This document shows positions 2,087-59,797 of a DNA stretch of 64,000 nt, one piece after another (within the stretch, counting starts at the first letter, position 1; every line of letters starts with the position of its first letter). Below the pieces are notes generated by a model. The model was not told the origin of the DNA. It was given only the letters and a program-made list of their open reading frames with translations, and did not search any database. Source of the stretch: Minisyncoccota bacterium (lineage in GTDB: Bacteria; Patescibacteriota; Minisyncoccia; Phycocordibacterales; XYD1-FULL-46-19); NCBI GenBank assembly GCA_041663165.1, contig JBAZRF010000003.1:11364-75363 (forward strand). The letters are read 5' to 3'. The position numbers and the translations under genes are program-made.

Positions 2087-3119
2087 AAATTTTTGGCTAG
2101 ACCTGACCAAGCCCTTTTTTGCTTTGGCGCCGATGTATGACGTGACCGACGCGGCGTTTCGAGCGATGTTTGTAAGACACAGTAAAAGCCGTGCGAAGTC
2201 GGATCTGGCTACGCGAGATACGACTTCGCACGACCTCGTCTTGTTTACTGAATTTGTGTCCGCTGACGGTTTGGCGAGCGAAGCGGGGCGACTGAAGCTC
2301 CGCCGCGAACTTTATTACACGGAGGCCGAACGGCCGATTGTGGCCCAGATTTTTGGCTCTAAACTGGAGAGTATTGAACAGGCCATTAAATTGGTTAAAG
2401 AGCTGGGTTTTGACGGCGTGGACATCAATATGGGCTGTCCCGATCGAGCGGTGGAGAAACAGGGGGCGGGAGCTGCTTTGATTAAAAATCCCAAGTTAGC
2501 GCGAGAAATTATCGCGGCGGCGAAAAAGGCGGCTGGGAAGATGCCCGTCTCAGTGAAAACACGAATTGGTTACAATAAAATAGATTTCGATTGGATCCAG
2601 ACAATTTTAGACGCTAAACCCGATGCGGTTACTTTTCATTTACGTACTCGTAAAGAAATGTCAGACGTGCCAGCGCATTATGAAGTTGTCCCTGAAATTG
2701 TGAGAATTTTTAAAAGCAGTGGCATTCCCATCATAATCAATGGCGATGTGAAGAGTGTTGAGGAGGGTCAAGAATTGGTAAAAAAATACAGTATTGATGG
2801 AGTGATGATTGGCCGAGGGGCGTTTGGGAAGCCCTGGGTGTTCGCTAAAGACGCAGTGCGAAGTCGCATTTCAGGCTCACTTGAAAAACGACTTCGCATG
2901 GCCGTTGAACATTCTAAACTTTTTTGGGATTTATACGGAGATACTCAAACTAACCAAAAACTTTTCAACGGCCACACCAAAAACTTTGCCGTTATGCGCA
3001 AGCATTTCAAAGCCTACGCCTCTGGCTTCAAAGGGGCAACGGCTCTTCGGGCCAAATTAATGCAAGCAAATAATCCCGATGAAGTTGAAAAGATAATAGA
3101 CGAATTCTTGCTGGATTGA
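2064..3119 (+). CDS. dus: tRNA-dihydrouridine synthase
   Basis: FALAPMYDVTDAAFR and INMGCP motifs with TIM-barrel Dus layout. The ORF track starts at TTG 2055; ATG 2064 is the more likely start. Contains two in-frame palindromic inserts. Confidence 0.8.
   Translation: MKNCQPTKNFWLDLTKPFFALAPMYDVTDAAFRAMFVRHSKSRAKSDLATRDTTSHDLVLFTEFVSADGLASEAGRLKLRRELYYTEAERPIVAQIFGSKLESIEQAIKLVKELGFDGVDINMGCPDRAVEKQGAGAALIKNPKLAREIIAAAKKAAGKMPVSVKTRIGYNKIDFDWIQTILDAKPDAVTFHLRTRKEMSDVPAHYEVVPEIVRIFKSSGIPIIINGDVKSVEEGQELVKKYSIDGVMIGRGAFGKPWVFAKDAVRSRISGSLEKRLRMAVEHSKLFWDLYGDTQTNQKLFNGHTKNFAVMRKHFKAYASGFKGATALRAKLMQANNPDEVEKIIDEFLLD
2191..2231. repeat. Palindromic element, family A (GTGCGAAGTCG-GATCTGGCTACGCGAGATA-CGACTTCGCAC), in-frame within dus
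   Basis: Perfect 11-bp terminal inverted repeat. The core recurs at 31558, 33219 and 41833. Confidence 0.8.
2856..2899. repeat. Palindromic element, family B (GTGCGAAGTCGCATTT...AAAAACGACTTCGCA), in-frame within dus
   Basis: Inverted termini GTGCGAAGTCG/CGACTTCGCA. A near copy lies in prmC at 12986-13026. Confidence 0.7.
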
Positions 3120-3720: not shown

Positions 3721-3767
3721 ACTATCTACTACTTTTACTCCTTACTACTTGCTGTTATAATCCCCGT

Positions 3768-19360: not shown

Positions 19361-19385
19361 AGAATTGATCCGAATAAACCCGCTT

Positions 19386-23039: not shown

Positions 23040-23081
23040 AAAATAACATCCTTACAAACTTGAGAATGTAAGGATGTTATT
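23040..23081. repeat. Hairpin repeat copy 2 (15-bp stem), lying in the divergent promoter region
   Basis: AATAACATCCTTACA-AACTTGAGAA-TGTAAGGATGTTATT. Confidence 0.85.
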
Positions 23082-23094
23082 GTAAAATATAGAA

Positions 23095-30810: not shown

Positions 30811-30818
30811 TTAATTTA

Positions 30819-30855
30819 GAAGTCGTACTTCAAGTGAGCCCGAAGTCCGACTTCG
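30819..30855. repeat. Intergenic palindromic elements (GAAGTCGTACTTC then CCCGAAGTCCGACTTCG)
   Basis: Same GAAGTC...GACTTC motif family as the intragenic copies. Confidence 0.6.
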
Positions 30856-30945
30856 AAATTATTTAAACCTAGAAAAAAGAAAACCCGCCACACGCCAACG
30901 GTGGGTTCTCCCAGTGCGTTGATGCGGGGCGGGGACAGGCAGGGG

Positions 30946-31395
30946 CTATTTCAGGAGTTCGAAATCCAGCGATCCGTCAGGACCCATGCTCGGAGCACAC
31001 ACTTCAAGCTTTTTGAAACCGTTTGTGCTCCACGGGATGCGAATTTCGATTCGCTCGACACCTTCCACCTTCATCGCTTGCCTGATTGCGATGAGGAAAT
31101 GTCGTTGTGTCGGAGTTGGCATACCGGCATAGCGGAGGAATAGCTCCTGATTGTCGAAGAAGATATCCACGCCATTGTCGGCGGCCGGGATTCGGAAGCG
31201 TGGTTTCGATTTAGACTCGCCCCTTAGTTCTTTTTCAACACCGGGCAAATCTTCTCCTATTCCCACCTGCTGTCCGGCCCACCATCTCTTATAGAATTCG
31301 TCGAAAAGACACTCCAACACCTTACGAGTAGTAACTTGCATGACAAACTCCTTTCTTTGGCTCGAATCACTGCGCAGGATGCGTTTTGCGCTCAT
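30946..31395 (-). CDS. Hypothetical protein (149 aa), GC-richer than its surroundings
   Basis: ORF with a TTGACA-containing promoter-like sequence upstream on the minus strand. Confidence 0.4.
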   Translation of the reverse strand: MSAKRILRSDSSQRKEFVMQVTTRKVLECLFDEFYKRWWAGQQVGIGEDLPGVEKELRGESKSKPRFRIPAADNGVDIFFDNQELFLRYAGMPTPTQRHFLIAIRQAMKVEGVERIEIRIPWSTNGFKKLEVCAPSMGPDGSLDFELLK

Positions 31396-31486: not shown

Positions 31487-32548
31487 ATGAAAACAATATT
31501 TTTTGAATTAGAAAATTGGGAAAAAGAGTATATCGAAGCGAGTTCGGGGTCGGATTCGCAAAGTTCGAAATCGGATCTGGCTACGCGAGATACGATTTCG
31601 AACTTTGTTTTTGTCGATGGGATTTTGGATGAGGAGACGGTTGGTAAATTAACAGACGAGCAAAAGGGCACAGATATTATTTCGATTTTTGTTGACTCGG
31701 TAATCAATGCAAAAATTTTGGCGAGTTTTCCCAATCTCAAATTAATTTGCACTCGTTCGACCGGCTATGATCACATTGATATCGAAGCGTGTAAGGCCAA
31801 GGGCGTAGCGGTGGCGACTGTGCCCAGTTATGGCGAAGAGACGGTGGCGGAATACGCTTTTGCTTTAATGCTCACGCTCTCACGCAAAATTTTTGAAAGT
31901 TACGACCGCATTAAAAAGACGGGGAGCTTTGACCTTACCGGCATGCGCGGTTTTGATTTAAATGGTAAAACTCTAGGAGTAATTGGCACGGGCAAGATCG
32001 GCAAAAATGTGATTGAGATTGCCAAAGGCTTTAATATGAAAGTGATTGCTTATGATAAATTCCCCGACGAGGCTTATAAACAAAAAATGGGTTATGACTA
32101 CTTAATGATGGACGAAGTGCTGGCTCAAGCTGATATTTTGACCTTGCATGTGCCCTACCTGCCCGAAAACCACCATTTAATCAATGCCGAAATAATTGCC
32201 AAAATGAAAAAGGGTGTTTACTTAATCAACACCGCTCGCGGAGCGTTGGTTGAGACGGAAGCTTTGCTCAAGGGTCTTAAAGGTGGAGTGATTGCCGGCG
32301 CCGGTTTAGATGTGCTTGAAGAAGAGGGGATAATTAAAGATGAGCTAAACTTCTTGACGGGTGCTCACCCGGGCGAGCACGATTTGCGGGTGGTGCTCGA
32401 AAATCACGTTCTTGTCGATATGCCAAATGTTGTCGTCACGCCCCACAACGCCTTCAACACTTGGGAGGCTCTGCAACGCATCCTCAATACGACGCTTGAA
32501 AATATAAAATCTTTCTCTTCCGGAATGCCGCAAAACGTGGTAAAGTAG
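31487..32548 (+). CDS. D-isomer-specific 2-hydroxyacid dehydrogenase (D-lactate/phosphoglycerate dehydrogenase family)
   Basis: NAD-binding GVIGTGKIG with catalytic R/E/H layout. Carries a family-A palindromic insert near the N-terminus. Confidence 0.8.
   Translation: MKTIFFELENWEKEYIEASSGSDSQSSKSDLATRDTISNFVFVDGILDEETVGKLTDEQKGTDIISIFVDSVINAKILASFPNLKLICTRSTGYDHIDIEACKAKGVAVATVPSYGEETVAEYAFALMLTLSRKIFESYDRIKKTGSFDLTGMRGFDLNGKTLGVIGTGKIGKNVIEIAKGFNMKVIAYDKFPDEAYKQKMGYDYLMMDEVLAQADILTLHVPYLPENHHLINAEIIAKMKKGVYLINTARGALVETEALLKGLKGGVIAGAGLDVLEEEGIIKDELNFLTGAHPGEHDLRVVLENHVLVDMPNVVVTPHNAFNTWEALQRILNTTLENIKSFSSGMPQNVVK
31558..31606. repeat. Palindromic element, family A variant (CAAAGTTCGAAATCG-GATCTGGCTACGCGAGATA-CGATTTCGAACTTTG)
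   Basis: Perfect 15-bp terminal inverted repeats. The core loop is identical to 2191-2231. Confidence 0.8.
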
Positions 32549-32552
32549 CGGA

Positions 32553-33848
32553 GTGAAATTCGAAATACAGAAGAAAATGCAGGCTGGTCTAGGCCGGGCC
32601 GGAGTAATTCATACAGCGCATGGCGATATTGAGACGCCGGCGTTTGTAACGGTGGGGACTAAGGCGACGGTTAAGGCGCTCACGCCCGAGATGGTTAATT
32701 CGCTCGGTGCGCAGGTGGTGCTCGCCAACACTTACCATTTATATCTTCAGCCGGGAGATGAACTGATAAAAAAAGCCGGCGGTCTCCATAAGTTTATGAA
32801 CTACAACGGCCCAGTGATGACCGACTCGGGCGGTTTTCAGGTCTTCTCTCTTGGCGCGGCGTTCGGCGAAGGGGGTATTTCGAAATTTGTTAAAAACTCT
32901 GATAATCTGTGTACAAAATCGTCAAATAAGTCTTATTTTTCGAAATCCAACTTCGAACACGAGGAGGCCATCGTCAAGTTGGCCAAAATTGACGAAGACG
33001 GTGTAACTTTTAAATCAATTATTGACGGTTCGGAGCATCGCTTTACACCGGAGCGGTCGATGCAAATTCAGCATAATCTTGGTGCAGATATTATTTTTGC
33101 TTTTGATGAATGTACTTCACCTCTTGCCGATTATGAATATCAAAAGCAAGCGATGGAGCGAACCCATCGCTGGGCGGAACGGTCTTTGGCTGAACATCAG
33201 AGATTAAACGCCGAAGCTGGTTCGAAGTCGGATCTGGCCCCCACTTCGCCAAGGCTCCGAGGGGTAAATACGCGAGATACGACTTCTAACCCAGCCCTGT
33301 TTGGTATTGTGCAGGGTGGTCGACATCAAGATTTGAGAGAAGAAAGCGCGCGATTTTTGGCCGGATTATGTCCGCCTACTGGCGGATTTGACGGCTTTGG
33401 CATTGGTGGATCATTTAATAAAGAAGACATGGGCACGGCTGTTGGTTGGGTGAGCCAGATTTTGCCCGAAGATAAACCGCGACACTTGCTGGGCATTGGT
33501 GAACCAGCCGATATTATTGAGGGTATTAAAAATGGCGCCGATACTTTTGATTGTGTCACGCCTACCCGGATGGCCCGCAACGGGACGCTAATGGTTAAGG
33601 GTGGAAGACTTAATATCTTTAACGCTCAATATCGCGAAGATTTTGGCCCGATCGAAGAGGGTTGTGGTTGTTACACTTGCCAGCTCAACTCTGATGGCAC
33701 GGCCAAATATTCTCGCGCTTACTTGGCCCATCTCTTTCGCGCGAAAGAAATTCTCGCTTCAACTCTCGCTTCGATTCATAACCTTTATTTTTTGGTAAAC
33801 TTTACAAAACAAATTCGGAGTGATATTTTAGAAAACAGACTTGGCTAA
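32553..33848 (+). CDS. tgt: Queuine tRNA-ribosyltransferase (tRNA-guanine transglycosylase)
   Basis: VMTDSGGFQVFSL, zinc site CGCYTC, ending HNLYF. About 55 aa longer than typical because of two in-frame inserts. Confidence 0.85.
   Translation: MKFEIQKKMQAGLGRAGVIHTAHGDIETPAFVTVGTKATVKALTPEMVNSLGAQVVLANTYHLYLQPGDELIKKAGGLHKFMNYNGPVMTDSGGFQVFSLGAAFGEGGISKFVKNSDNLCTKSSNKSYFSKSNFEHEEAIVKLAKIDEDGVTFKSIIDGSEHRFTPERSMQIQHNLGADIIFAFDECTSPLADYEYQKQAMERTHRWAERSLAEHQRLNAEAGSKSDLAPTSPRLRGVNTRDTTSNPALFGIVQGGRHQDLREESARFLAGLCPPTGGFDGFGIGGSFNKEDMGTAVGWVSQILPEDKPRHLLGIGEPADIIEGIKNGADTFDCVTPTRMARNGTLMVKGGRLNIFNAQYREDFGPIEEGCGCYTCQLNSDGTAKYSRAYLAHLFRAKEILASTLASIHNLYFLVNFTKQIRSDILENRLG
32876..32960. repeat. 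AT-rich palindromic insert in tgt (AAATTTCGAAATTT ... TTTTTCGAAATCCAACTTCGAA)
   Basis: A perfect 14-bp palindrome plus a CGAAATCCAACTTCG unit. Encodes an extra about 30 aa after the FSLG motif. Confidence 0.6.
33219..33291. repeat. Family-A palindromic element with an internal 32-nt insertion, in-frame in tgt
   Basis: TTCGAAGTCGGATCTGGC, then an insert, then CGCGAGATACGACTTCTAA. Confidence 0.75.
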
Positions 33849-34192: not shown

Positions 34193-36202
34193 ATGTCAAA
34201 TAAGATATTCAATTTAAAATCAAAATTTGCTCCGGCGGGCGATCAACCTAGAGCGATTAAAGAACTGGTGGTGGGGTTGAAAAAGGGTAAAAGGCACCAG
34301 ACGCTTTTAGGCGTGACGGGGTCGGGTAAGACTTTTACGATGGCTAATGTGATTGAGGCCTATAATAAGCCGACCCTGGTGATTGCTCACAATAAAACAT
34401 TGGCCGCGCAATTGGCGCAAGAATATCGCGACTTTTTCCCTGATCACGCCGTTCATTATTTTGTGTCTTATTACGATTATTATCAGCCCGAGGCCTATAT
34501 TGCGCACTCGGATACTTATATCGAGAAGGACGCGAGTATTAACGAAGAAATTGAACGTTTGCGCCACGCTTCAACTCAAGCTCTCTTAACTCGTCGGGAT
34601 GTGATTATTGTCGCTTCGGTCTCGTGTATTTATGGCTTGGGCAGTCCGGAGGAATATGCTAAGAGTTTTGTGCGTCTGCTCGTGGGCGATAAATATACTC
34701 GTCAGGAAATCATTGAGAAATTGATCAGTGTTTATTATGAACGAACCAACGCTGACCTCACGCCGGGTACTTTTAGGGCGATTGGTAACTCAATTGAGAT
34801 TATGCCACCGGGCGAACGCGAAATTGTAAATCTTAAAATGATCGACGACCGGATTGACCAAATTTTAATTATTGACGCGATTTCGCGCAAAATCATTAAT
34901 GAGCCAAACGAAACTTATCTTTATCCGGCTAAGCATTTTATTACGACCGACGATGAGCGTGATCGAGCAATTTCTTCGATTAAGCTTGAGCTTGAAGAGC
35001 GACTAAAAGAGTTAAATAAAAATAGTAAATTATTGGAGGCCGAAAGATTGAAGCGGCGAACCAATTATGACCTGGCAATGATTAAAGAGATTGGTTATTG
35101 CAACGGTATTGAAAATTATTCGCGTCACTTGTCGGGACGAAAGAAAGGGGAGGCGCCGGCTACTCTCTTAGATTATTTTCCCAAAACGGCTGATGGAAAG
35201 GCTGATTTTCTGACAATTATTGATGAGTCGCACGTGGCTGTACCACAAATTCGCGGGATGTTTGCCGGTGATGAGAGTCGAAAGAAAAATTTGGTGGAAT
35301 ACGGTTTTCGTCTGCCCAGCGCACTTGATAATCGACCGCTCCGCTTTCCTGAATTTGAGGAGCGAGTAAACCAGGTGATTTACACTAGCGCGACGCCGGG
35401 TGAATATGAATTTGGGCAGTCTGGAGCCGACGGTGTAATCGAACAAATAATCAGACCGACCGGTTTAATTGATCCAGAAATTGAGGTTCGTCCCATCCTA
35501 AACAATCAAATTAAAGACTTTATTAAAGAGGCGCAAAAAGAAATTAAAAATGGCCATCGCGTGATTGCGACGACCCTAACCAAAAAAATGGCCGAGGATT
35601 TGGCCGAATATTTAAAAAATGAAGGCGTTAAGGCTGAATATCTGCATAGTGAAGTAAAAACAATGGAGCGCATCAAAATCCTGACAGATTTTCGTCGTGG
35701 GGTTTTCGATTGTCTCGTCGGCGTCAACTTATTGCGCGAGGGCTTAGATTTGCCCGAAGTTTCGTTTATCGGGATTCTCGATGCTGACAAGGAGGGCTTT
35801 TTGCGCTCTGAAGTTTCGCTCATCCAAACTATTGGCCGGGCCGCGCGCAATTTGGCCGGGCGAGTAATTCTCTATGCCGATATGGTAACCGGCTCGATGA
35901 AAAAGGCGATCGATGAGACTAATCGTCGGCGCGCAATCCAGCTCAAATATAACAAAGATAACCACATTACGCCCGTTTCTATTACCAAAAAAATTCACGA
36001 TATCACTGACTCGCTCTCGACCGAACGTCATAAAGCGGTAGCTAATTTGCTGGCCATTGAAACACCCGGGCTCGATAAAAAAGGATATAAGAAATTAGTC
36101 AAAGATAAGACCAAACAAATGAATGAGGCGGTCAAAAATCTCGACTTCGAAACCGCCGCCATTTTGCGGGATGAGATCCGAGCGTTAGAAAATATAAAAT
36201 AA
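34193..36202 (+). CDS. uvrB: Excinuclease ABC subunit B
   Basis: GVTGSGKTFT Walker A, helicase motifs, C-terminal UVR domain. Confidence 0.9.
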   Translation: MSNKIFNLKSKFAPAGDQPRAIKELVVGLKKGKRHQTLLGVTGSGKTFTMANVIEAYNKPTLVIAHNKTLAAQLAQEYRDFFPDHAVHYFVSYYDYYQPEAYIAHSDTYIEKDASINEEIERLRHASTQALLTRRDVIIVASVSCIYGLGSPEEYAKSFVRLLVGDKYTRQEIIEKLISVYYERTNADLTPGTFRAIGNSIEIMPPGEREIVNLKMIDDRIDQILIIDAISRKIINEPNETYLYPAKHFITTDDERDRAISSIKLELEERLKELNKNSKLLEAERLKRRTNYDLAMIKEIGYCNGIENYSRHLSGRKKGEAPATLLDYFPKTADGKADFLTIIDESHVAVPQIRGMFAGDESRKKNLVEYGFRLPSALDNRPLRFPEFEERVNQVIYTSATPGEYEFGQSGADGVIEQIIRPTGLIDPEIEVRPILNNQIKDFIKEAQKEIKNGHRVIATTLTKKMAEDLAEYLKNEGVKAEYLHSEVKTMERIKILTDFRRGVFDCLVGVNLLREGLDLPEVSFIGILDADKEGFLRSEVSLIQTIGRAARNLAGRVILYADMVTGSMKKAIDETNRRRAIQLKYNKDNHITPVSITKKIHDITDSLSTERHKAVANLLAIETPGLDKKGYKKLVKDKTKQMNEAVKNLDFETAAILRDEIRALENIK

Positions 36203-38093: not shown

Positions 38094-40697
38094 ATGGAAG
38101 AAAATAAGATTAAAATTAAGGGCGCACGAACGCATAACCTTAAGAATATTAGTTTAGAAATACCGCGGAACAAGCTGGTGGTTTTTACGGGTCTCTCAGG
38201 TTCGGGCAAATCAAGCCTCGCTTTTGATACAATTTTTGCCGAGGGACAAAGACGATATGTGGAATCGCTCTCGGCTTACGCCCGACAATTTTTAAAGCAA
38301 TTACCTAAGCCTGACGTAGACGAAATCAGCGGTCTCTCACCGGCGATTTCGATTGATCAAAAATCTCGTTCCCATAACCCAAGGTCAACAGTAGCCACAA
38401 TCACTGAAATCTACGATTATTTGCGTGTGCTTTACGCGCGGATTGGCCAGCCCCATTGTCCAATTTGCGGAGAACGGATTGAGAAATTATCGCATGAGGA
38501 GATTGTGAATTTTGTGAAAACCAAAATGGTGGAGGCTGAAACTTCCGGAGCCATCTCCCTTTTGGCGCCGATCGTACGAGGCAGAAAAGGCGAATACTAT
38601 CAGCTTCTCTACGACTTAATTGATAAGGGTTACTCCGAAGTTTTAATTGATGGTAAAAAATACAAATTGCGTGAGCGAATTATCCTGACCAAAACTAAGA
38701 AGCACGATATTGATGTTGTTATTGATGAGATTCCCTTAGCAGATTTCACTGGTCGAGGCTCAACCTCGACCGAAGTTAAACCCAAAAAACAAAAGGGGGA
38801 TTTGGGCTCTTTGGTTGCTTCCGCTAAGTCCGATTCGGCCAACGAACGCCTAACCGAAGGGGTTGAGCGGGCGCTTAAAGAATCTGACGGTTTGGTCAAA
38901 ATTGTTTTGGCGGGGGAGACTTCCCTTTTATCTTCAAAATTTGCCTGTCCAAACGACGGCTTCTCTTTTCCCGAGATTGAGCCACGTCTTTTCTCTTTTA
39001 ACTCACCTTATGGGGCATGTCCCGAGTGTCATGGTCTTGGTACTAAACACATGTGGGGTAACGAAGTCTGTGAGGTTTGCAATGGCGCACGCTTGCGACC
39101 AGAAGCTTTGCAAGTAAAGATTGCGGGCAAAAACATTGTCGAGACAGTTAATCTTTCAATCGGCGAGGCCAAGAAACTTTTTGATACTGTAAAATTAACG
39201 CCCAAAGAAAAAGCGATCTCCGAAGTTTTGTTTAAAGAGATTGGCGCTCGGCTTAAATTTTTAAACGATGTTGGATTAGATTATATCGAGTTAAGCCGGC
39301 GGGCTGATACTTTATCGGGGGGAGAAGCGCAACGTATTCGTTTGGCGTCACAACTTGGCTCGCGTTTGGTGGGTACACTTTATGTGCTTGATGAGCCAAC
39401 TATCGGTTTGCACGCGCGCGACAACGATAAGTTAATTAAGACCTTGCTTGAATTACGCGACTTGGGTAACTCGATTGTCGTGGTTGAGCATGACGAAGAC
39501 ACAATTTTCGCTTCTGATTATCTCGTTGATATTGGCCCGGGTGCTGGTGTGCATGGCGGTCATATTGTTGTGGCTGGCGAAACAGACAAGCTCTTAACTT
39601 CAAAAAAGAATGACTATAACTCGCTAACTGTTGATTATCTGCGTGGGGATATTGAGATTCCCGTGCCCGAAAAACGTCGGTCAAAAGATAAGGGGACGAT
39701 CAAAATCCGCGGGGGCAATATCTTTAATATCAAAAATCTTAATGTCGATATTCCCCTTGGCAAATTAGTGGCGATTACTGGCGTGTCAGGTTCAGGTAAA
39801 TCTTCGCTTGTTTACGAAATCTTGCATAAAAATTTGCAAGCTCGACTCGAACGACGTTATCGCACTAATGAATTGTTTAATTGCAAAGAGTTTTCGGGCA
39901 GTGAATATGTTAGTCGAGTGGTAATGATTGACCAATCGCCCATTGGTCGAACCCCGCGTTCGAATCCCGCCACTTATACTGGCGCCTTCACCTTTATTCG
40001 CGAATTACTAGCCGAAACCGCCTTGGCTCGGGCAAGAGGGTGGAAGGCATCACGTTTCTCCTTCAACGTGCAAGGTGGACGGTGCGAGGCTTGCCAAGGT
40101 AATGGCGAAGTGGCCGTTGAGATGCACTTTTTGCCGACTATTTATGTGCCGTGCGATGTGTGCCTGGGTACGCGTTACGAAAAGGATACGCTTGAGGTTC
40201 AATACAAAAAAAAGAATATCAGCCAGATTTTGCACATGACGGTGGAGGAGGCGCTTGAATTCTTTAATGATATCCCCGCCATTCATGATCGGCTTAAGAG
40301 CCTAAACGATGTTGGTTTGGGCTATCTCGAACTTGGCCAATCAGCGACCGACCTCTCGGGTGGCGAAGCGCAACGGGTGAAAATTTCGTCCGAACTTTAT
40401 CGGCCCTATACCGAACGTACCATTTATGTCTTAGATGAACCAACAATTGGTTTGCATTATGAAGACGTAAAAAAATTAAATGAGATTTTGCAAAAATTAG
40501 TCGAGAAGGGAAACACAGTGGTGGTGATTGAACATAATATGGAGGTAATCAAATGCGCCGATTACATTATTGATATGGGCCCTGAAGGTGGCTTGGGTGG
40601 TGGTAACTTGGTGGCCAAAGGCACACCTGAAGAAGTGGCTTACGCGCCGGGATCTTACACGGCAAAGTATTTGAAAAGGGCGTTAAGAAAAAAATAA
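38094..40697 (+). CDS. uvrA: Excinuclease ABC subunit A
   Basis: Two ABC ATPase modules (GLSGSGKSS and GVSGSGKSS), two LSGGE signatures, and zinc-finger Cys clusters. Confidence 0.9.
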
Positions 40698-40702
40698 CAA
40701 AT

Positions 40703-42109
40703 ATGGAGTCTCGCGACTTAAAAAAATATAGATTACCCGATAGGCCTGGGGTGTACTTTTTTAAACGTCAACGGAAAATTCTTTATATTGGCAAAGCAAC
40801 ATCACTTAAAGACCGAGTGAAGAGTTACTTTGCTGGTGATTTGGGCGAAACACGTGGGCCAAAGATTACCCAGATGCTGGCTTTGGCCAAAAAAATTGAT
40901 TGGCAAGAAACCGATTCGGTTTTAGAGGCCTTATTGTTGGAAACGGAATTAATTAAGAAGCATCAACCGCCTTACAATACCCGCGAGAAGGATGATAAGA
41001 GTTATTGGTATGTGATTATCACCGACGAAGACTTTCCGCGCATTTTGCCCATCCGTGGCCGGGAACTAGAAAACTCAAAAAACCCTTATTTTGCGAAATC
41101 CAACTTCGAATTTGGGCCGTTTCCGTATGGGGCCGAGATGAAAGAAGCGCTTAAAATAATTCGCAAGATTTTCCCGTATCGGGACAAATGTGAGCCTTGC
41201 AAACTACGCGAGGAACGACCTCGGGCGCACTTGAGGTCGCACCTCTCTCCGTTTTGCAAAGCTTGTTTTAATCGCCAGATTGGTTTATGCCCGGGTGTCT
41301 GCACTGGCGAAATTTCGAAAACTGATTATCAAAAAATCGTCAGAAACATCAAATTGTTTTTCGAAGGCAAGAAAAAAGAAGTACTTAAAAATCTTGAACG
41401 AGAAATGAAGATTCTGGCGAAAGAACAAGAATTTGAAAAAGCGAGTAAAACTAGAGATCAGATTTTTGCATTAAATCATATTAGGGATGTGTCATTGCTT
41501 AAGAAGAAAGGACGAGCGGAGAGAGGTGAATCCTCAAGTGAGCCCGAGGTCTCACCTCGCGGAGCTCGTTCTATTAGAATTGAAGCTTACGATATTGCTC
41601 ACCTATCCGGTAAAAATACCACTGGCGCAATGGTGGTGTGGCAAAATGGCGAAATGGATAAAAATGAGTATCGTAAGTTTAAGCTAAAGGGATCAAAAGC
41701 TAATCAACCTGATGACTCGGCCAATTTGCGCGAAATCCTAGAGCGACGTTTTAATCACCCGGAGTGGTCCTTACCAGATATTATTGTGGTGGATGGGAAT
41801 CAGGTGCAAAGGGATGTCGTTGAAGAGGTTTTGCGAAGTCGCATCTGGCTACGCGAGAAACGACTTCTCAAAACGGGCCCTGGCGATGTGAGAAATGCGA
41901 CTTCAAGTGCGCCCGAAGTCGTTTTTCGCACAGAGCCAGAACAAATTAAAGCCATTGCCGTGACCAAAGACGACAGGCATAAGGCTTCTAACCTCATCGG
42001 AGATTCGGCTATTATTCGGGATTACCACCGCCCAATAATTGAGGCCAATGCCGAAGCCCATCGTTTTGCACTGGCCTACCATAGAAAATTACGCCGGCGA
42101 TTGGTATAA
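40703..42109 (+). CDS. uvrC: Excinuclease ABC subunit C (short form, 468 aa, no recognisable C-terminal HhH region)
   Basis: GIY-YIG N-terminus (GVYFF...ILYIGKA), a Cys-rich region and a UvrB-interaction-like region. Carries at least five palindromic-element copies. Confidence 0.8.
   Translation: MESRDLKKYRLPDRPGVYFFKRQRKILYIGKATSLKDRVKSYFAGDLGETRGPKITQMLALAKKIDWQETDSVLEALLLETELIKKHQPPYNTREKDDKSYWYVIITDEDFPRILPIRGRELENSKNPYFAKSNFEFGPFPYGAEMKEALKIIRKIFPYRDKCEPCKLREERPRAHLRSHLSPFCKACFNRQIGLCPGVCTGEISKTDYQKIVRNIKLFFEGKKKEVLKNLEREMKILAKEQEFEKASKTRDQIFALNHIRDVSLLKKKGRAERGESSSEPEVSPRGARSIRIEAYDIAHLSGKNTTGAMVVWQNGEMDKNEYRKFKLKGSKANQPDDSANLREILERRFNHPEWSLPDIIVVDGNQVQRDVVEEVLRSRIWLREKRLLKTGPGDVRNATSSAPEVVFRTEPEQIKAIAVTKDDRHKASNLIGDSAIIRDYHRPIIEANAEAHRFALAYHRKLRRRLV
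41093..41110. repeat. Palindromic unit GCGAAATCCAACTTCGAA in uvrC
   Basis: With upstream AAAAACCCTTATTTT it mirrors the prmC unit at 13290-13327 in reverse orientation. Confidence 0.6.
41216..41250. repeat. Element copy (CGACCTCGGGCGCACTTGAGGTCGCACCTCTCTCC), inverted relative to 41518-41556
   Basis: 30/35 match to the reverse complement of 41518-41552. Also 23/25 to the reverse complement of 41897-41921. Confidence 0.7.
41518..41556. repeat. Element copy (GGAGAGAGGTGAATCCTCAAGTGAGCCCGAGGTCTCACC)
   Basis: Forms an inverted-repeat pair with 41216-41250, about 270 bp away, inside the uvrC coding sequence. Confidence 0.7.
41833..41869. repeat. Family-A palindromic element (GCGAAGTCGCATCTGGCTACGCGAGAAACGACTTCTC) in uvrC
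   Basis: Same core as 2191-2231. Confidence 0.8.
41897..41921. repeat. Element copy GCGACTTCAAGTGCGCCCGAAGTCG
   Basis: The CAAGTG(C/A)GCCCGA(A/G)GTC motif is also present at 30826-30855, 41231-41250 and 41535-41552. Confidence 0.7.
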
Positions 42110-43100
42110 TATGGGAGTGTTAGAGCCATTCGCTAATTTTTCTTTTGTTAATTACCCCAGCTTCTGGGCAATCTTGCTGATTTTCTTTGTGGCCGTTTTT
42201 TATCTCGGCCGATTTTGGCAAAGTCGCGAGAGTCATTTGCAAATTTTGATTAATGAGGCCAATCTCAAGACCCAACAAATTCAGGAGTTGGAAAAGGTGA
42301 ATCAAGAACTTGAGTCTAAAAATCGAGAGCTTTATTCTAAAGAACTCGGCCTGACTCTGGCTAATAAGAAACTCCAATCACTTGAAGAGGCCAAGTCAAA
42401 ATTTGTTTCAGTCACAACCCATCAACTAAGAACACCGCTGGCGGCGATTAAGTGGACGCTCGACATGGCGGCTAAGGGCCAGCTGGGAACAGTTACTGAT
42501 GAACAAAAAAAATATTTGTCGCAAGGACTAATAAGTACGGAGCGTGTAATCTCGATCGTAAATGATCTGCTCAAAATAGATGCCATTGACGCTGAGCGCG
42601 CTGATTACACTTTTCGTCCGACTGACTTGGTCAAATTAATTTCTAATATCATTTTCGAATTCACTAATCAAGCGGCGATTAAGAAAATAAATTTTCTCTT
42701 TCTTAAACCGCAAAACACCATTCCTTTAGTTGAGATGGACCCCGATAAGGTCCGGATGGTTTTAGAAAATCTAATTGATAATGCCATTAAATATACCTCA
42801 TCGGGCGGTAAGGTTACCATCAAGATATCTGACGAGCGAATAAATAGTGCCGAGGGGGCAATAGAAATCAAAATTATTGACTCTGGCATCGGTATTCCCT
42901 CAAGCGAGACGGACAAAATTTTCCAAAAATTCTTTCGAGCGTCTAATGCTATTAAGGCTGAGCCGGACGGTTCTGGTTTAGGGCTATTTATTGCTAGAGA
43001 TATTATTGAGAAGCATAACGGGGCCATTTGGTTTGAAAATGATCCCGGGGATGGGACCGTCTTTTCCTTCACTTTACCTTTGCACCAAAAGAAAGTATAA
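42039..43100 (+). CDS. Sensor histidine kinase (TM helix, coiled-coil, HisKA and HATPase_c domains)
   Basis: H-box TTHQLRTPLAAIKW; N/G-box DNAIKYT...GSGLGL. The start is uncertain; ATG 42108, just after a TATAAT, is an alternative. Confidence 0.75.
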   Translation: MRPMPKPIVLHWPTIENYAGDWYNMGVLEPFANFSFVNYPSFWAILLIFFVAVFYLGRFWQSRESHLQILINEANLKTQQIQELEKVNQELESKNRELYSKELGLTLANKKLQSLEEAKSKFVSVTTHQLRTPLAAIKWTLDMAAKGQLGTVTDEQKKYLSQGLISTERVISIVNDLLKIDAIDAERADYTFRPTDLVKLISNIIFEFTNQAAIKKINFLFLKPQNTIPLVEMDPDKVRMVLENLIDNAIKYTSSGGKVTIKISDERINSAEGAIEIKIIDSGIGIPSSETDKIFQKFFRASNAIKAEPDGSGLGLFIARDIIEKHNGAIWFENDPGDGTVFSFTLPLHQKKV

Positions 43101-43200
43101 TTTACCCTGTGGAGTAATGATGCTTGAGCATCATAAAATTATAAAATAATTTTTACTCAACAGGGTGAACCCTTAATTAATAACCTAACTTAAAAAGATT

Positions 43201-43581
43201 ATGGACAACGCTGAGGCTAAAAAAGTTTTAATTGTCGAGGATGATGAATTTTTACGGTCCCTAAACGCTAAACGTTTGGAGACGGAAGGTTTTAAAGTGG
43301 TGGTGGCTGTTGATGGCCAAAATGCTATTGATCTTATCCCTCAAGAAATGCCCAATTTGATTTTTTTGGACCTGCTCTTGCCGGGTATCGACGGTTTCGA
43401 GGTGTTGAAAAGAATTAAGGCGGATGAAAAAACCAAGGCCATTCCGGTTATTGTTTTCTCTAACCTCGGGCAAAAAGAGGATATTGAAAAAGCTCACAAT
43501 CTTGGGGCGGCCGACTTTTTAATCAAGGCCAATTTTACCCTTGATGATGTTGTCGTCAAAATTAAAGAAATTTTAAAATAA
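43201..43581 (+). CDS. Stand-alone response-regulator receiver domain (CheY-like)
   Basis: Acidic pocket VEDDE, phospho-acceptor D in IFLDLLLPG, and conserved K in FLIKA. Confidence 0.8.
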   Translation: MDNAEAKKVLIVEDDEFLRSLNAKRLETEGFKVVVAVDGQNAIDLIPQEMPNLIFLDLLLPGIDGFEVLKRIKADEKTKAIPVIVFSNLGQKEDIEKAHNLGAADFLIKANFTLDDVVVKIKEILK

Positions 43582-50244: not shown

Positions 50245-50984
50245 GAATTAATTTACAGGGAGTTGGTAAAAAATTTAATCTAAATTTCAAAAAGAGGGAA
50301 GGTATCCTTGCCCGTCTGTTGTCGGTTTTTTCCTTGAGCAAAAACACTAACGATTTTTGGGTTTTTCGCGGAATTGATTTTACGCCCGCCGATGGCCAAA
50401 TTGTTGGCATCATTGGCCGAAATGGTTCAGGTAAATCAACTTTGCTTCGGGTACTGGCGGGAATTTATCAAGCTGATGAGGGAACAGTTAAGTTAAAAGG
50501 TCAGGTGGCATATTTAACCGGATTTGGCCAAGGCTTAATGCCCAAATTAACAATGCGCGAAAATATCTATCTGGTCGGTTCTTTGCTTGGCTTGGGTCAA
50601 AAAGAAATTAAACAGCGTTTTGCGGAGATCGTTGAATTTTCTGAACTGGGTGAATACATTGAAACGCCGGTCTACAAATTTTCCTCCGGCATGGTTTCGC
50701 GACTAAGTTTTTCAACCACGATTTTTTGCTTAAAACATCGCAATCCGGATATTTTGTTAATTGACGAGGCTCTCGAGGCCGGGACTGATTTAAACTTTAG
50801 GAATAAGGCTTTAAATAAGATGGAAGAAATTTTACTCACCGGTGCCAATGTCGTTTTAGTTAGCCATGATTTAGTCATGATTGAGAAGTATTGCCATGAT
50901 GTTATTTGGCTAGACAAGGGGAAAATTGTCAAACAGGGACCGGCTAGCGAAGTGGTCGAGGCTTATGTTAAGGTAAACGAGTGA
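50241..50984 (+). CDS. ABC transporter ATP-binding protein (Wzt/TagH-like)
   Basis: Walker A GRNGSGKST, a signature-like FSSGM, and Walker B LLIDEAL. Confidence 0.8.
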   Translation: MRINLQGVGKKFNLNFKKREGILARLLSVFSLSKNTNDFWVFRGIDFTPADGQIVGIIGRNGSGKSTLLRVLAGIYQADEGTVKLKGQVAYLTGFGQGLMPKLTMRENIYLVGSLLGLGQKEIKQRFAEIVEFSELGEYIETPVYKFSSGMVSRLSFSTTIFCLKHRNPDILLIDEALEAGTDLNFRNKALNKMEEILLTGANVVLVSHDLVMIEKYCHDVIWLDKGKIVKQGPASEVVEAYVKVNE

Positions 50985-53900
50985 ACGGAGAAAAAAGACA
51001 AAAAGTAATTTTGGTTCTTGGTATGCACCGAAGCGGTACCTCGGCCTTGGCCGGCATCCTACAGTTTTTGGGAGTGGACTTGGGTCCCAACCTGATGCCG
51101 GCAAGCGAATTTAATCCTCGCGGCTACTTTGAAGATCTTGATATTGTTGGGATAAACGATAAAATTCTGTCAGCTATTGGTTCTGGTTGGAATGATCTAA
51201 ACGAACTCCCTGATAACTGGCCAGTAAGGTTCCCGTCGGTATTGGCGCTTAAAGAAGATCTAAAGAAAATTATCAGTCGAGATTTTGGGTCTTCATCCAT
51301 TTTTGCCATAAAGGATCCTCGCCTTTGTTTATTGTTACCACTTTATTTTGAGATTTTTCAAGATTTAGCCATCGATTCAAGCTTGGTTCGTATCCAGAGA
51401 GCTCCGGCCGAAGTCGCTTTTTCCTTGGGGCGGTCAGAAAAATTGAATCTGGTTAAAGCGTTACAACTTTATCGTAAGTATCAAAAATATCTGGAAAAAT
51501 ACTTGGTCGGACGCCGAGTCGTTACGGTTGAATTTAACCAACTCTTGAACAATCCGGCCCAGGTAATCTCTTTGATTAAAAATCTAGTTCCCGAAATACC
51601 CTTTGATTATCAGGTACGCCAAAAGGAAATAGATGCCTTTTTAGATTATCAGTTAAAACATTTTGGCCAGCAAAGCCAAGATGATTGCCTGTTTTCGCTA
51701 TTGGATAATATTAATGAAAATGAACAGACCATCGTCTTGACCAATCAAACTATCGAACAAGATAAAAAAAGACTGAACGAGGTACTTAACCAAAGAGAGC
51801 GGTTGCAGCAAGAAAACATAAAAAAAGATGTTGAGATCGCCACCCGGCAAGAACAGCTGGAAGAATTAAAGCAACAAAATCTCGAGCGCGATATCTTTAT
51901 TGAATCTCAACATCAGGAACTAGCCACTATAAAAAGTAGCTTGACCTGGAGAATGCAAAAGGTTGTTGATCGATGGATAAGCCTTTTGCTTAGTCGAAAT
52001 GACGGCCAAAGGGGTCGTTCGCGGGAAGAAATTGCCCGCCAATATTTGATTGGTGAGGGAATTGAAATTGGCGCCCTGCATCAGCCGCTTAAATTGGACC
52101 AAAGTAGGGCCAGGGTTCATTATGTTGATTACCTCGACCAAGAGGGATTAAAAAAAGTTTATCCCGAGATAAACTCTGACAGTATCACCACCCCTGAGAT
52201 CATTGCCAAGGCCGAAGACTTGAGTCCGATTGCCGATAGTAGTCAGGATTTCGTCATTGCCAATCATTTACTTGAACATGTTTCTAATCCAGTCGAAGCG
52301 CTCTCGGAATTCTACCGAGTAACCAAAAAGGAGGGTGGAATCGTTTTTTTAACCCTGCCGAACAGTCGATCCTGTTTTGATTCAGCCAGAGAAATTACCA
52401 GATCCCAACACTTCAGAGACGATTTTGATCTTAATAACAGCGAACGAAAAGTTGTAGATCTTGGTCATTATTTAGACTGGGCAATCAACGTCTTAAAAAT
52501 TCAAAATATTGATGAGGCTAATAGAATTGCCCATGAACTAAGCGCTAAGGGGTATCCAATTCATTTCCATGTCTTTAGTTATCAATCGGCCATTGATTTT
52601 ATCAATAGTCTAGAAATTAATTATGGTTTTGGTTGGGAAATGATTTATTCGCAAGAAGACAAGGACGAATTCATATTTATTCTTCGTCCCAAAACAGAAA
52701 AGGTAGAAATAGGTTTAACTGAGAATTATCAACCTCTCGTTTTGCCAGCCTGTGTCGAACCGGAAGTTTCCATTATTATCCCCGTCTATAACAAGTTTAA
52801 ATATACCTACCGGTGTCTAAAGTCTCTCCTTGAGGCGGAACCAGGGTTAAAATATGAAGTCATTGTCGCCGACGATGGCTCGACTGATGAGACTCTAAGA
52901 ATAGGGGAATATTTTAGTCAGATCAGAGTAATCAGAAATGAAACAAATCTTAGATTTTTGAAAAATTGTAACAAAGCGGCCCTTGAAGCCAAAGGTAAAT
53001 ATTTACTGTTTCTAAATAATGACACCAAAATACTGCCTGGTGCGATCTCACACTTACTCGCCACGATCAAAAGTAATGAAACAATTGGGGTTGTCGGCGG
53101 TCGGCTAATTTTGCCTGACCAAACCTTACAGGAGGCTGGCGGTATTTTATGGAGCGATGGAACCTGTTTTGGTTATGGCCGTGGCGATGATCCTTTTAAG
53201 CCCGAGTATTCATATGTGAGAGAAATCGATTATTGTTCAGGCGCTCTTCTCTTGACACCAACTGAATTATTTTTAGGACTAGGCGAGTTTGATATCCGTT
53301 TTGCGCCCGCCTATTATGAAGATGCCGATTATTGTACCGCCGTCATTAATAAAGGGTACAAGGTAATTTATCAGCCGTTGGCCAGTGTGATTCATTATGA
53401 ATTTACCAGCCACGGCAAGAGCTCGGCCACTGAACTTCAAAAAAGAAATGGCCAACTCTTTAGAACTAAGTGGCAGGAATATTTGAATTTTAAATATCCG
53501 GCGGATTTAAAAAACACTTTATGGGCGCGAGACAATCAAAATTTTAAAAGTCGGGTCTTGATTATTGATGACCGATTGCCCAATGCTAAACTTGGCGCTG
53601 GCTACCCGAGGGCTAGGGCCATCCTAGATATTCTGCTAGAGCAAAAAAGGTTTGTTACCTTTTTGCCGACAGAAATTAACTACGAAGAGGATATTGATTG
53701 TCTCAGGGAGCTCCGACAATTAAGCGTCGAAATTCTTTGCCAGACCGAGAGAAATCCCTTCAACGCCGCTAATCTCGCAGATCTTTTGGCCAAACGGGAA
53801 GATTTTTACGATCAGATTGTGATTAGTCGACCCGCCAACATGGCCAGGCTGGGGGATCTTATTAGAGGCAAAATCAATAGGGCAAAGACTAAGATAATCT

Positions 53901-56617: not shown

Positions 56618-57704
56618 CCAGAGTGCCAATCAAGGCTTTGATTTTAGCGATAAAGACTTGGGTATCAAATTTTTGGGCTTGTTTTAGGCAGGCCGCTTGA
56701 TAATTTTCGGCTTGCGGGCCAATTTTTTTAATTGCTTCAATTAGCTTGTTACTGTCAATATTGTCGATTAATTTGCCAGTCTCGCCGTCAATCACGCTTT
56801 CTTTATAACCGCCTTCATTAGGGGCAATCACTGGTTTCCCAGCCGCCATCGCTTCGACGACGGTCATCCCAAAATCTTCATCTTGGGCCGTGGTAATGAA
56901 TCCGCGGCAATTGGCATATAAATCCAACAATTCCTGTCGGCTGACCCAGCTCTTGATCTCAACATTGGCCGGCTGAATCCTCTTAATATAATCGGCATAT
57001 TGCTGAAAATGCCGAGACTGTTCATAACTGCCCACTAAAATTAACTTTTCATTCGGCAAAGCGGAAAAAGCCTTCATTTGTAAATCTACTCGTTTGTGGC
57101 CAATCAATCGGTTAACGCTTAGCCAAAAATTACCATTTGGTTTGCCGTAATAGTCTTTGGTCTCAATCGGCGGATTGATAATGGTTGCCTCTCGGTTCAA
57201 GTATTTGGTCAAACGATTTTTGGTATTCTGCGAATTGCAGGCAATCAGGTCAACGCGCTTAATATACTTTCGATTGTAATAACGATTAAGTTTAACCCAA
57301 AGATCAAAGATTGGTCGCGCCCAGACCGGGACGGTGTTCTTGCGCGTATATTCATAAAGGTCCCAAATTTCACGGATCGGTGAGTGAACATACCACAAAT
57401 TGGGGTAATTATTAACTGCTCCCGCCATCGCCCAGTCGCCGCTGATAATGAAAAAATCGTATTGGTCGCGCAGGTTTAAATGGCGAAAACGCCAGAGCGA
57501 AAATTGTTGTTTAAATGGGGCGTTGACTGGTACGTGGCCAATCGACTTGACAGTTACATCGGCAAAGCCCATCTTGGCAATTTTCTCAATATCAACATTG
57601 GTTGAATAGATGTCCGCTTTAAGTTCGCGGGCCAAGGTCAGGCTCAAGATCTCGGCGCCGCCGATATTGTCCATGAAGTTATGAAAGATGGCGATTTTTT
57701 TCAT
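56598..57704 (-). CDS. Glycosyltransferase family 4 (GT-B, retaining)
   Basis: Glycos_transf_1-like C-terminal region (GFITTAQDEDFGMTVVEAMAAGKPVIA). Confidence 0.75.
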   Translation of the reverse strand: MKKIAIFHNFMDNIGGAEILSLTLARELKADIYSTNVDIEKIAKMGFADVTVKSIGHVPVNAPFKQQFSLWRFRHLNLRDQYDFFIISGDWAMAGAVNNYPNLWYVHSPIREIWDLYEYTRKNTVPVWARPIFDLWVKLNRYYNRKYIKRVDLIACNSQNTKNRLTKYLNREATIINPPIETKDYYGKPNGNFWLSVNRLIGHKRVDLQMKAFSALPNEKLILVGSYEQSRHFQQYADYIKRIQPANVEIKSWVSRQELLDLYANCRGFITTAQDEDFGMTVVEAMAAGKPVIAPNEGGYKESVIDGETGKLIDNIDSNKLIEAIKKIGPQAENYQAACLKQAQKFDTQVFIAKIKALIGTLANNPAK

Positions 57705-57706
57705 CG

Positions 57707-59050: not shown

Positions 59051-59793
59051 TGTTTTTTATAATCTCCCTGGGATAGCCATTTTTCTAATAGGCAATAAAG
59101 AATAATGAAAAAATAGCGACTGCCCATTTCCTTTATTCGCAATTTGCTCTGGCCGGCCTGGCGATTTGTCCAACAATTAGGCACTATGGCGTAAGTATAG
59201 CCACGAACAATGGCCTTAAGCGGCAGCTCAACCGTTAAGTTAAAATGGTTGCTGAGAAATGGTCTTAAACCTTCAATTACCTCTCGCCGGTAAAGTTTAA
59301 AAGCGTTGGTTGTATCGTTATACTTGATTCCAAACAAAAGTTTAATCAAGTTATTAGTCAACCGGTTCAGATAATATTTAAATTTGGGATAACCGATAAC
59401 CTGGCCGCCAGATATAAATCTTGAGCCAAAGACGCAATCGTAGCCCTCCTCAATTTTCTGATAATATTTTACCAAGTCCTCGGGTCGATCGGAAAGGTCA
59501 GCCATAACGATCGCTACGTAATTACCGGAAAAGTTATCCAAACCCTTTCTGACCGCTAAACCAAAGCCGTTAGGAAGGGGTTTATTAAAATACCTAAGCT
59601 CAATTATTTCTAGCGACAATTCCTCAAGAATTTTTTCTGTTTGATCAGTACTATTATCGTTGACGATGATAATTTCATGGTCAATAAGGGCTTTTTTTAA
59701 TTCGTCGTGAAAGGCGCGAATAGTTTTTGCAATACTGCCACTTTCGTTGTGGGCCGGGATGATGAGGGACAGTTTTTTTGTTGGGCTCGGCAT
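59047..59793 (-). CDS. Glycosyltransferase family 2 (polyprenyl-phosphate sugar synthase, DPM1-like, soluble)
   Basis: LSLIIPAHNE...IIVNDNSTD...DxD-like MADLSD. Confidence 0.75.
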   Translation of the reverse strand: MPSPTKKLSLIIPAHNESGSIAKTIRAFHDELKKALIDHEIIIVNDNSTDQTEKILEELSLEIIELRYFNKPLPNGFGLAVRKGLDNFSGNYVAIVMADLSDRPEDLVKYYQKIEEGYDCVFGSRFISGGQVIGYPKFKYYLNRLTNNLIKLLFGIKYNDTTNAFKLYRREVIEGLRPFLSNHFNLTVELPLKAIVRGYTYAIVPNCWTNRQAGQSKLRIKEMGSRYFFIILYCLLEKWLSQGDYKKQ

Positions 59794-59797
59794 AATT

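Follow-up and report, generated by a model that had tools for sequence, protein, structure and literature searches.

Short palindromic repeats, probably selfish, lie in frame in uvrC and other genes of a narrow Paceibacterota clade

Palindromic repeats inside protein-coding genes have been described in Rickettsia, as the Rickettsia palindromic elements (RPEs; Ogata et al. 2000 Science 290:347; see PMC10969869 and PMC6649704 for summaries). RPE units are about 100-150 nt long (PMC10969869). As far as these summaries portray them, RPEs are dispersed palindromes of a small, gene-dense genome, and many of them lie in frame in unrelated housekeeping genes, at surface positions compatible with the protein fold. 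They fall into several families, no transposase is known for them, and their copies decay. Here we describe hairpin repeats that are alike in these respects, in a stretch of 64,000 nt from a Minisyncoccota bacterium (contig JBAZRF010000003.1; hereafter the window). The gene uvrC alone holds five of them. Three further systems resemble these repeats in part. Repetitive extragenic palindromes (REPs) and bacterial interspersed mosaic elements (BIMEs) are GTAG/CGTC-tagged palindromes that go together with REP-associated tyrosine transposases (RAYT or TnpA-REP; PMC3733652, PMC3184786). Coding palindromes have been described in genes of nematomorph mitochondria, where the complementarity of the arms was attributed to template switching or repeat conversion (PMC6649704). 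[quoted passage not shown]

The uvrC gene (40703..42109, + strand) encodes a protein of 468 aa with GIY-YIG, UVR motif and UvrC RNase H-like endonuclease domains (Pfam PF01541, PF02151 and PF08459), which is 100% identical to a public "UvrB/UvrC motif-containing protein" of Candidatus Paceibacterota. A preliminary description of this DNA had called the gene riddled with at least five copies of palindromic elements. We find all of them where it had placed them, and the word is fair. The first is a mini unit, 'M' (41089..41110, +; TTTTGCGAAATCCAACTTCGAA). It contains a single arm module, GAAATCCAACTTC, and YFAKSNFE (aa 129-136) is the peptide that it encodes. The second is a B-type hairpin in inverted orientation (41201..41254, -), with the loop GGGCGCACTT at 41223-41232. 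It encodes KLREERPRAHLRSHLSPF (aa 167-184) and is placed between the invariant Cys163 and Cys188 of the UvrC four-cysteine motif, which we take to bind an iron-sulfur cluster. Another B-type hairpin (41509..41572, +), with AAGTGAGCCC as its loop at 41536-41545, contributes KGRAERGESSSEPEVSPRGARS (aa 269-290) to the linker that joins the UVR motif to the endonuclease domain. Farther downstream lie the two units that had been recognised as a family-A element and a third copy of the same family as the inverted pair. The former is the hairpin GAAGTCGCATCTGGC-TAC-GCGAGAAACGACTTC (41828..41874, +), with a site-specific outer stem, GTTTTG/CAAAAC, and the encoded peptide VLRSRIWLREKRLLKT (aa 376-391). 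The latter is again of B-type (41880..41939, +; loop AAGTGCGCCC at 41905-41914, outer stem CTGGC..GCCAG) and encodes PGDVRNATSSAPEVVFRTEPE (aa 393-413). The predicted junction peptides of the inserts include GESSSEPEVSPR and NATSSAPEVVFR.

In a repeat search across 40600-42200, each unit is its own inverted repeat, with a 10-nt centre or, in family A, a 3-nt centre (I3, I4, I6 and I8); the family A arms are 41828-41849 and 41853-41874. The B-type units also match one another. The arms 41204-41251 and 41517-41564 are 83% complementary over 48 nt and stand 265 nt apart. They contain the inverted pair 41216-41250/41518-41556, for which 30 of 35 matching nucleotides had been reported, and the sequence between them is, as proposed, normal UvrC coding sequence, comprising the conserved CFNRQIGLCPGVC segment and the UVR motif. 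A second pair of arms, 41208-41247 and 41890-41929, is 85% complementary over 40 nt; 41521-41551 and 41890-41920 are copies of each other in direct orientation. If up to 3 mismatches are allowed, the 18-mer TCAAGTGCGCCCGAGGTC matches at 30830, 41217 (-), 41534 and 41903, that is four times against 0.02 expected. The match at 30830 lies within an intergenic unit (30812-30861), in line with an earlier sighting of the motif near 30826-30855. The 22-mer at 41089-41110 recurs at 32936-32957 in the TGT gene (2 matches, 0.00 expected). Five of the ~16 units of the window fall within the 1.4 kb of uvrC (Poisson P ~3e-5). Checked against both chance and protein-level conservation, the similarity of the copies stays above chance: they occur in both orientations and several frames, and they are missing from most orthologues.

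Comparison with orthologous proteins shows what the units add to UvrC. In related bacteria of the candidate phyla radiation (CPR), UvrC has 394-496 aa, with a median of 419. In an alignment of 119 sequences, the rarely occupied residues of the window protein are aa 127-134, 175-181, 278-284 and 382-412. The last stretch spans two adjoining units, so that the four stretches equal the five units. Among the 118 orthologues, aa 127-134 are occupied in just 12% and aa 382-412 in 4%. Of the UvrC proteins aligned, that of the window alone has the family A unit. The shortest orthologues (394-405 aa, the ~400 aa class) have gaps at all five unit sites, and the site of 41201-41254 is empty in L059, L060 and L063. 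In close relatives (56-70% identity), these hot spots hold different inserts: longer variants at the site of the mini unit, and other subfamilies or a flipped loop at the site of 41509-41572. Insert peptides that recur in the UvrC of relatives are SSEPEV, TSGSLE, RPRAHL and PAFAEGSGVAKR. An AlphaFold2 model of the window UvrC, built on the same alignment, has a mean predicted local distance difference test score (pLDDT) of 85.6. The sole segments below 50 are aa 177-181, 267-287 and 397-409, all of them element-encoded, by units 41201-41254, 41509-41572 and 41880-41939, respectively. The family A unit is modelled as a helix extension in which the confidence falls. The model thus places the inserted peptides outside the conserved fold, in surface or loop positions, where they are probably disordered.

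The units share a modular architecture. Their arm module, GAAGT-NNN-ACTTC, forms a mini-palindrome of its own and is also found alone. It is combined with alternative centres, AAGTG(A/C)GCCC in type B (10 nt) and ATCTGGC-TAC-GCGAGA in type A. When 64 B-type copies are aligned on the loop and a hairpin of 25 pairs is counted, 76.5% of the cells are paired; shuffles give 56.7%. Covariation scores 0.530, compared with 0.193 for shuffled alignments. This value is reached by 0/500 shuffles, and slid registers give 0.12-0.21. The 10-nt loop AAGTGAGCCC is near-invariant and sits on at least four different self-complementary stems: GAGAAATGCGACTTC/GAAGTCGTTTTTCGC, CGAGGTGAGTCCTC/GAGGTCTCTCCTCG, GAAGTCGTACTTC/GAAGTCCGACTTC and the GC-rich CCCGCCAGACCTC/GAGGTCTGGCGGG, which is found only between genes and often has a T-run after it. 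Copies share mismatches in their stems (at position 14, for instance, just 22% of them are paired), which argues that the core was copied from master sequences. Farther out, at arm positions 19-21 from the loop, the pairwise identity between 49 coding-type copies is 0.27-0.30 and equals background; within a copy, the same positions are complementary in 61-71%. Beyond position 26, complementarity reaches the background of 0.16-0.29. In the GC-stem class, pairing ends directly after position 13. Family A copies likewise have site-specific outer stems, and loops are at times flipped relative to the arms. A model of nested insertions, in which the outer layers are older elements, was rejected because the outer arm positions are unconserved between copies.

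The GC-rich subfamily, CCCGCCAGACCTC-AAGTGAGCCC-GAGGTCTGGCGGG, was seen in the related loci L008, L028, L030, L031, L034, L036, L046 and L051. In L030, one such copy directly follows the stop codon of a 509-aa open reading frame (ORF), and 450 nt from it there is another in inverted orientation; the 104-aa ORF between them has no Pfam hit.

The preliminary description overlooked that the repeats extend across the genome and the clade and are no peculiarity of uvrC. Motif and hairpin scans reveal at least 16 units of 22-83 nt in five genes and one spacer of the window, which contains 24 hairpins of at least 11 pairs, as against 2-7 in shuffles. The Dus gene holds a family A unit (2188..2234, +), which encodes SRAKSDLATRDTTSHD, and a B-type unit with the flipped loop GGCTCACTT (2857..2898, -), which encodes VRSRISGSLEKRLRM. 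As crowded as uvrC is a HemK/PrmC-like methyltransferase gene (ORF 12723-13637, with an NPPY motif), where we find at least five units (P ~4e-6). These are two adjacent B-like units (12923-12973 and 12985-13029, both +), the second with a decayed loop, followed by a CCCGACAACCC hairpin (13172-13207, +), the perfect mini-palindrome GCTTATCGAAGT-CGA-ACTTCGATAAGC (13242-13268, +) and a composite unit that ends in GAAGTTGGACTTC (13269-13329, +). This means that uvrC is a hot spot, yet not unique. The only unit in a spacer, of B-type (30812..30861, +), lies between the gene of a phosphoenolpyruvate (PEP)-utilising enzyme, which ends at 30810, and the convergent ORF 30946-31395 (-). A 2-hydroxyacid dehydrogenase gene contains a family A unit (31559..31607, +) that encodes QSSKSDLATRDTISNFV. 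The TGT gene (32553-33848) combines the mini unit 'M' (32936..32957, +), identical to the 22-mer of uvrC and encoding YFSKSNFE, with a family A unit that has a second small element nested in its centre (33214..33296, +) and encodes EAGSKSDLAPTSPRLRGVNTRDTTSNPA. The nested element, CCCCACTTCGCCAAGGCTCCGAGGGGTAAA, measures ~30 nt and lies exactly at the centre, which is direct evidence of nesting; it resembles the element that encodes PAFAEGSGVAKR in the UvrC of L056 and L064. The TGT of the window also has two other short lineage-specific insertions, LCPPTGG and LNSDGTAK, which a few relatives share and which are not obviously palindromic.

The position of the copies relative to genes was counted across 431 kb of the window and related loci. 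Here, 49 of 66 B-loop copies (74%) fall within ORFs of 120 aa or more; the random baseline is 87%. Twenty-seven of these 49 run in the orientation of the ORF and 22 in the opposite one. Two of the six frames of the B core contain a stop; the other four are all used (SSEPEV, QVSPR, TSGSLE and RPRAHL). Two frames are in use for family A, one giving AKSDLATRDTTSH (in Dus, TGT and the dehydrogenase) and the other LRSRIWLREKRLL (in uvrC). Every genic copy that we examined keeps the frame of its host open, and the two stop-containing frames are unseen inside genes. Six examined B-loop copies with coding-type stems outside long ORFs lie between ORFs, with no split genes. The use of both orientations and four frames indicates that the repeat acts at the level of DNA and not of the peptide. 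In line with this, the pattern is the one expected if insertion is frame-blind and selection removes frame-breaking copies.

Among 185,579 species genomes (one each), the loop motif is multi-copy in ~8 metagenome-assembled genomes (MAGs) of Paceibacterota, Vogelbacteria and (probably mislabelled) Saccharibacteria; high-GC genomes have it only singly and context-free. Two of the element-bearing MAGs, CAZXCI01 and CAZRQY01, are labelled 'Candidatus Saccharibacteria', but the UvrC and TGT proteins of both group with the relatives from Paceibacterota (P0010, P0137), and the label is probably a taxonomic misassignment. We also fetched the uvrC loci of relatives from metagenomes. The ten that are close (80 kb, with a UvrC identity of 56% or more) contain 11 B-loops and 11 arm modules; in 47 loci of more distant Paceibacterota (312 kb, with the same GC content, 0.44) there are 0 copies. 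The family is confined to a narrow Paceibacterota clade. We saw no sign of a phage origin: the lone IMG/VR match to the loop motif is without hairpin context and was judged to be due to chance.

Orthologous sites within this clade can be empty, filled or differently filled. The first Dus site holds family A in the window and an unrelated perfect palindrome (TTTGGGAGCCGAACTCCCAA...) in L027, whereas L026 and L050 have an empty site (...AAA CCC CAT GTT...). At the second Dus site (2857-2898), L026, L027 and L050 are all filled, with the loop in the other orientation. The site of TGT 33214-33296 is empty in L115, L116, L117 and many orthologues, and variously filled in others. The methyltransferase gene can be compared with that of L054, at 77-85% nucleotide identity. 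Here, 13245-13329 is a clean insertion in the window, with no direct duplication. The hairpin 13172-13207 is common to both, and its pairing is kept via a double change from A-T to G-C. Unit 12923-12973 has the same outer flank and a different inner stem in the two, still self-complementary, and the loop of 12985-13029, decayed in the window, is intact in L054 (GGGCTCACTT). Taken together, the orthologous comparisons indicate gain or loss, turnover and decay, along with a process that keeps or makes the arms complementary.

We consider it probable that the units in uvrC are copies of clade-specific, modular, selfish and non-autonomous hairpin repeats, which are RPE-like but, presumably, not homologous to RPEs. 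Judging from the sequence, the inserts would be translated as extra peptide. They would have no host function and would do nothing for UvrC. Such repeats would spread and turn over at the DNA level within the genomes of a narrow Paceibacterota lineage. Within a gene of such gene-dense genomes, a copy would persist only if its length is a multiple of three, if the frame that it offers is free of stops and if it lies in a tolerant surface loop or linker. Since UvrC has several flexible linkers, its gene may have served repeatedly, throughout the clade, as a place where copies land or are retained. The repeats might spread by copying via single-stranded hairpin intermediates, through template switching during replication or fold-back synthesis. 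Four features point to copying of this kind, which is the mode that we favour, albeit tentatively: outer stems that are complementary yet specific to each site, loops that are flipped, units that nest or adjoin one another, and the compensatory change. A process of the same sort was put forward for the coding palindromes of nematomorph mitochondria (PMC6649704). Comparably likely is a structure-specific enzyme that recognises the conserved loop.

Several points weigh against selfish, mobile repeats of this kind. Mobility is read from the distribution of the copies, and translation from the intact frames. No transposase, HUH or nuclease domain was found by Pfam in the ~52 ORFs of the window (64 kb of one genome) or in the small ORF of L030. 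The empty L054 allele of 13245-13329 has neither arm of the outer stem, which does not fit a simple version of template switching, in which the outer stem is an inverted copy of the target flank. All-against-all BLAST of the 118 loci shows no polymorphic, and thus recent, insertion. The closest pairs in this comparison are 100%-identical duplicates or relatives of at most 85% identity and, with no closely related polymorphic genomes, insertion junctions are not definable to the base. Finally, the intergenic unit 30812-30861 is near-identical to L006 7343-7402, where the flanking gene is only ~70% identical. This conservation, and the GC-stem copies that are intergenic and often carry a T-run, suggest that some copies may have a function such as termination.

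This leads to the question whether the loop TCAAGTGAGCCCGAGGTC is instead a host recognition sequence, such as a DNA uptake sequence, a binding site for partition, repair or nucleoid proteins, or a module of a terminator. The near-invariance of the loop on different stems, the intergenic GC-stem form and the conservation of 30812-30861 far above its flanks would fit such a role. Uptake sequences, too, occur in tolerant coding positions and in both orientations. However, they occur roughly once per kb, well above the density of ~0.8 per 10 kb here. In addition, the conserved stem mismatches are typical of copies of a master element, family A and the mini units behave identically without this loop, and loops decay in some orthologous copies. 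The pattern of an intrinsic terminator, a GC-rich stem with a T-run, fits 13 intergenic GC-stem copies in relatives; it is inapplicable to the uvrC units, which lie inside an ORF in either orientation and have AT-richer stems. We therefore regard a recognition sequence as very unlikely.

Slightly less likely still is a function of the hairpins in the uvrC mRNA, as structures that regulate its translation, stability or processing. Folding of the mRNA by long-range pairing had been suggested before, and as a prediction this part stands. In the minimum-free-energy RNA fold of 41180-41600, copies 1 and 2 pair over the 265-nt spacer (-144.8 kcal/mol, z = -7.3), and each unit also folds alone as a stable hairpin. 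We read the predicted pairing as a thermodynamic potential and a by-product of the repeats, rather than as a sign of regulation. A uvrC-specific RNA function finds no support, since the same units occur in unrelated genes in nearly equal numbers of either orientation and are missing from most UvrC orthologues, while other subfamilies or flipped loops take the same site. Moreover, some copies are decaying. In an Rfam 15 scan of the whole window, just three tRNAs reach the gathering score, and none overlaps any unit.

The second proposed consequence, that the copies promote deletions or inversions within uvrC, is not borne out. RecA-type homologous recombination requires a minimum of roughly 25 nt. 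The longest exact match between any two copies in uvrC is 12-14 nt, which is too short for efficient homologous recombination, and the hazard is thus unsupported. We saw no rearranged uvrC variant, the sole extra contig (L112) being 100% collinear. L112 is a JGI contig of 1404 nt that corresponds to 41908-43311 of the window at 100% identity and starts inside the loop of 41880-41939. Either assemblies break at hairpins or the population is heterogeneous at the loop.

Alternatively, the units might be left untranslated, through excision of the units from the transcript or through ribosomal bypass. Precedents for bypass are the byp elements of Magnusiomyces mitochondria and gene 60 of T4. Compact, stable hairpins inside ORFs would suit such a process, and CPR bacteria are known for unusual insertions in their rRNA genes. 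Yet both excision and bypass would lift the need for in-frame, stop-free insertion. That all examined genic copies nevertheless sit in an open frame, with no stop-containing frame in genes, and that the six B-loop copies outside long ORFs lie between ORFs, argues against both, and we think this explanation very unlikely. Selection of the segments at the protein level, as a peptide module or linker shared by several enzymes, is hardly credible. SSEPEVVFRT, AKSDLATRDTTSH and YF(A/S)KSNFE do recur in several proteins. However, four frames and both orientations yield unrelated peptides, the segments are predicted to be disordered and one copy is intergenic, and we rejected this candidate. An artefact of assembly or amplification, in the form of palindromic chimeras, can be dismissed almost entirely: although L112 begins inside a loop and assemblers do break at hairpins, the units are in frame, show ordinary divergence and recur at orthologous sites in independent assemblies (NCBI MAGs, JGI, ENA and Logan).

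Selfish hairpin repeats thus being the preferred explanation, how do they differ from the systems described so far? Length and host set them apart from RPEs. With units of 22-83 nt in Paceibacterota, a different phylum, they fall outside RPE-1 to RPE-10, and no sequence homology is expected. They further differ from RPEs in that the units are made of interchangeable modules, often nested or adjacent, in which one loop sits on several covarying stems, and in that they pile up in single genes, with five in uvrC and at least five in the methyltransferase gene. To our knowledge, site-specific outer stems are not described for RPEs. Like REPs, the repeats are imperfect palindromes of the 20-40 nt kind with conserved mismatches and several stem classes, they cluster in alternating orientation, and their intergenic GC-rich subfamily can look like a terminator. 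In contrast, REPs are extragenic by definition, whereas most B-loop copies (49/66) lie in long ORFs. The GTAG/CGTC tag (PMC3733652) is missing from both the consensus and the invariant columns of the 64-copy alignment, and no RAYT-like gene is present among the ~52 ORFs of the window.

The coding palindromes of Nematomorpha are similar in that hairpins lie in coding sequence, both arms are translated or, here, predicted to be, copies are gained and lost between species and the arms are kept complementary. Unlike the repeats described here, they are long (up to 284 bp), perfect and mutually unrelated. A conserved core with conserved mismatches in dozens of copies argues that a copied element is involved, and not only the local formation of palindromes. 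Other hairpin elements of organelles include the fungal double-hairpin elements and GC clusters. With MITEs, the repeats share that they are short, non-autonomous and sometimes intragenic and translated, here by prediction. They differ in that MITEs have conserved terminal inverted repeats, derived from insertion sequences, and direct target-site duplications. Here, the outer arms are the least conserved part (pairwise identity 0.24-0.30), and no direct duplication is seen at empty and filled sites, whose alleles are 15-30% diverged. A search for literature that links CPR, Parcubacteria or Patescibacteria with palindromes of the RPE, REP or MITE type returned nothing relevant, although its coverage was incomplete and absence is not proof. 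What seems new is that RPE-like behaviour is seen in an unrelated lineage and that the units are modular, far shorter and provided with outer stems specific to each site.

Whether this amounts to a new kind of repeat is more doubtful. We see it as a possibility, though not a strong one, that the repeats are hierarchical palindromes that need no transposase (or that depend on a new loop-binding enzyme, for example of the HUH type, which would make them the first 'coding REP'), by which a CPR lineage remodels, at scale, the loops of essential enzymes. In the transposase-free variant, the conserved core would be copied to new sites at replication forks, by way of single-stranded intermediates, and would grow outward by fold-back synthesis, giving rise to an outer stem that is unique to each site. 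Units could then flip, nest and replace one another.

Other features of the window stand apart from the repeat family. Just 5' of uvrC lie uvrB (34193-36202) and uvrA (38094-40697). Two copies of a hairpin unrelated to the GAAGTCG families, AACATCCTTACA-AACTTGAGAA-TGTAAGGATGTT, are found at 19328-19363 and 23040-23083, apparently in spacers, the first after ORF 18988-19311 and the second upstream of ORF 20118-22946 (-). Both could be terminators or members of another repeat family. A hairpin of 14/16 bp, GCGATGCCGTCACTCG-TCC-CGAGTGACGGCATTTC (3679-3713), directly precedes a dnaX-like ORF for DNA polymerase III gamma/tau (3714-4805), which contains one in-frame TAG at 4029-4031 (RALR*AVRTLPF). 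The codon is Glu in the 85%-identical L026 (RALREAVRTLPF). In this essential gene, the stop may have arisen through a sequencing error or a strain-level nonsense mutation, or it may be read through. At 50981-56617, one ORF of 1878 aa contains a methyltransferase domain together with several glycosyltransferase domains of the GT2 and GT1 types. After it, on the opposite strand, comes a series of genes for glycosyltransferases (56598-60943).

In-frame palindromic selfish DNA has so far been viewed as a peculiarity of Rickettsia. An independent and mechanistically distinct case in the CPR would suggest that it is a general outcome in gene-dense, reduced genomes, where coding loops would be the only free space. 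Units of 40-60 nt with a conserved loop could provide a compact model for the spread of hairpin DNA without an obvious transposase, and they could serve as fine-scale lineage markers. In practice, metagenome assemblers can break at such hairpins, as the one contig that starts in a loop illustrates, and annotators and structure predictors should expect element-encoded peptides and mask them. For the bacteria themselves, the repeats would explain part of the length variation and of the 'novel insertions' in CPR proteins.

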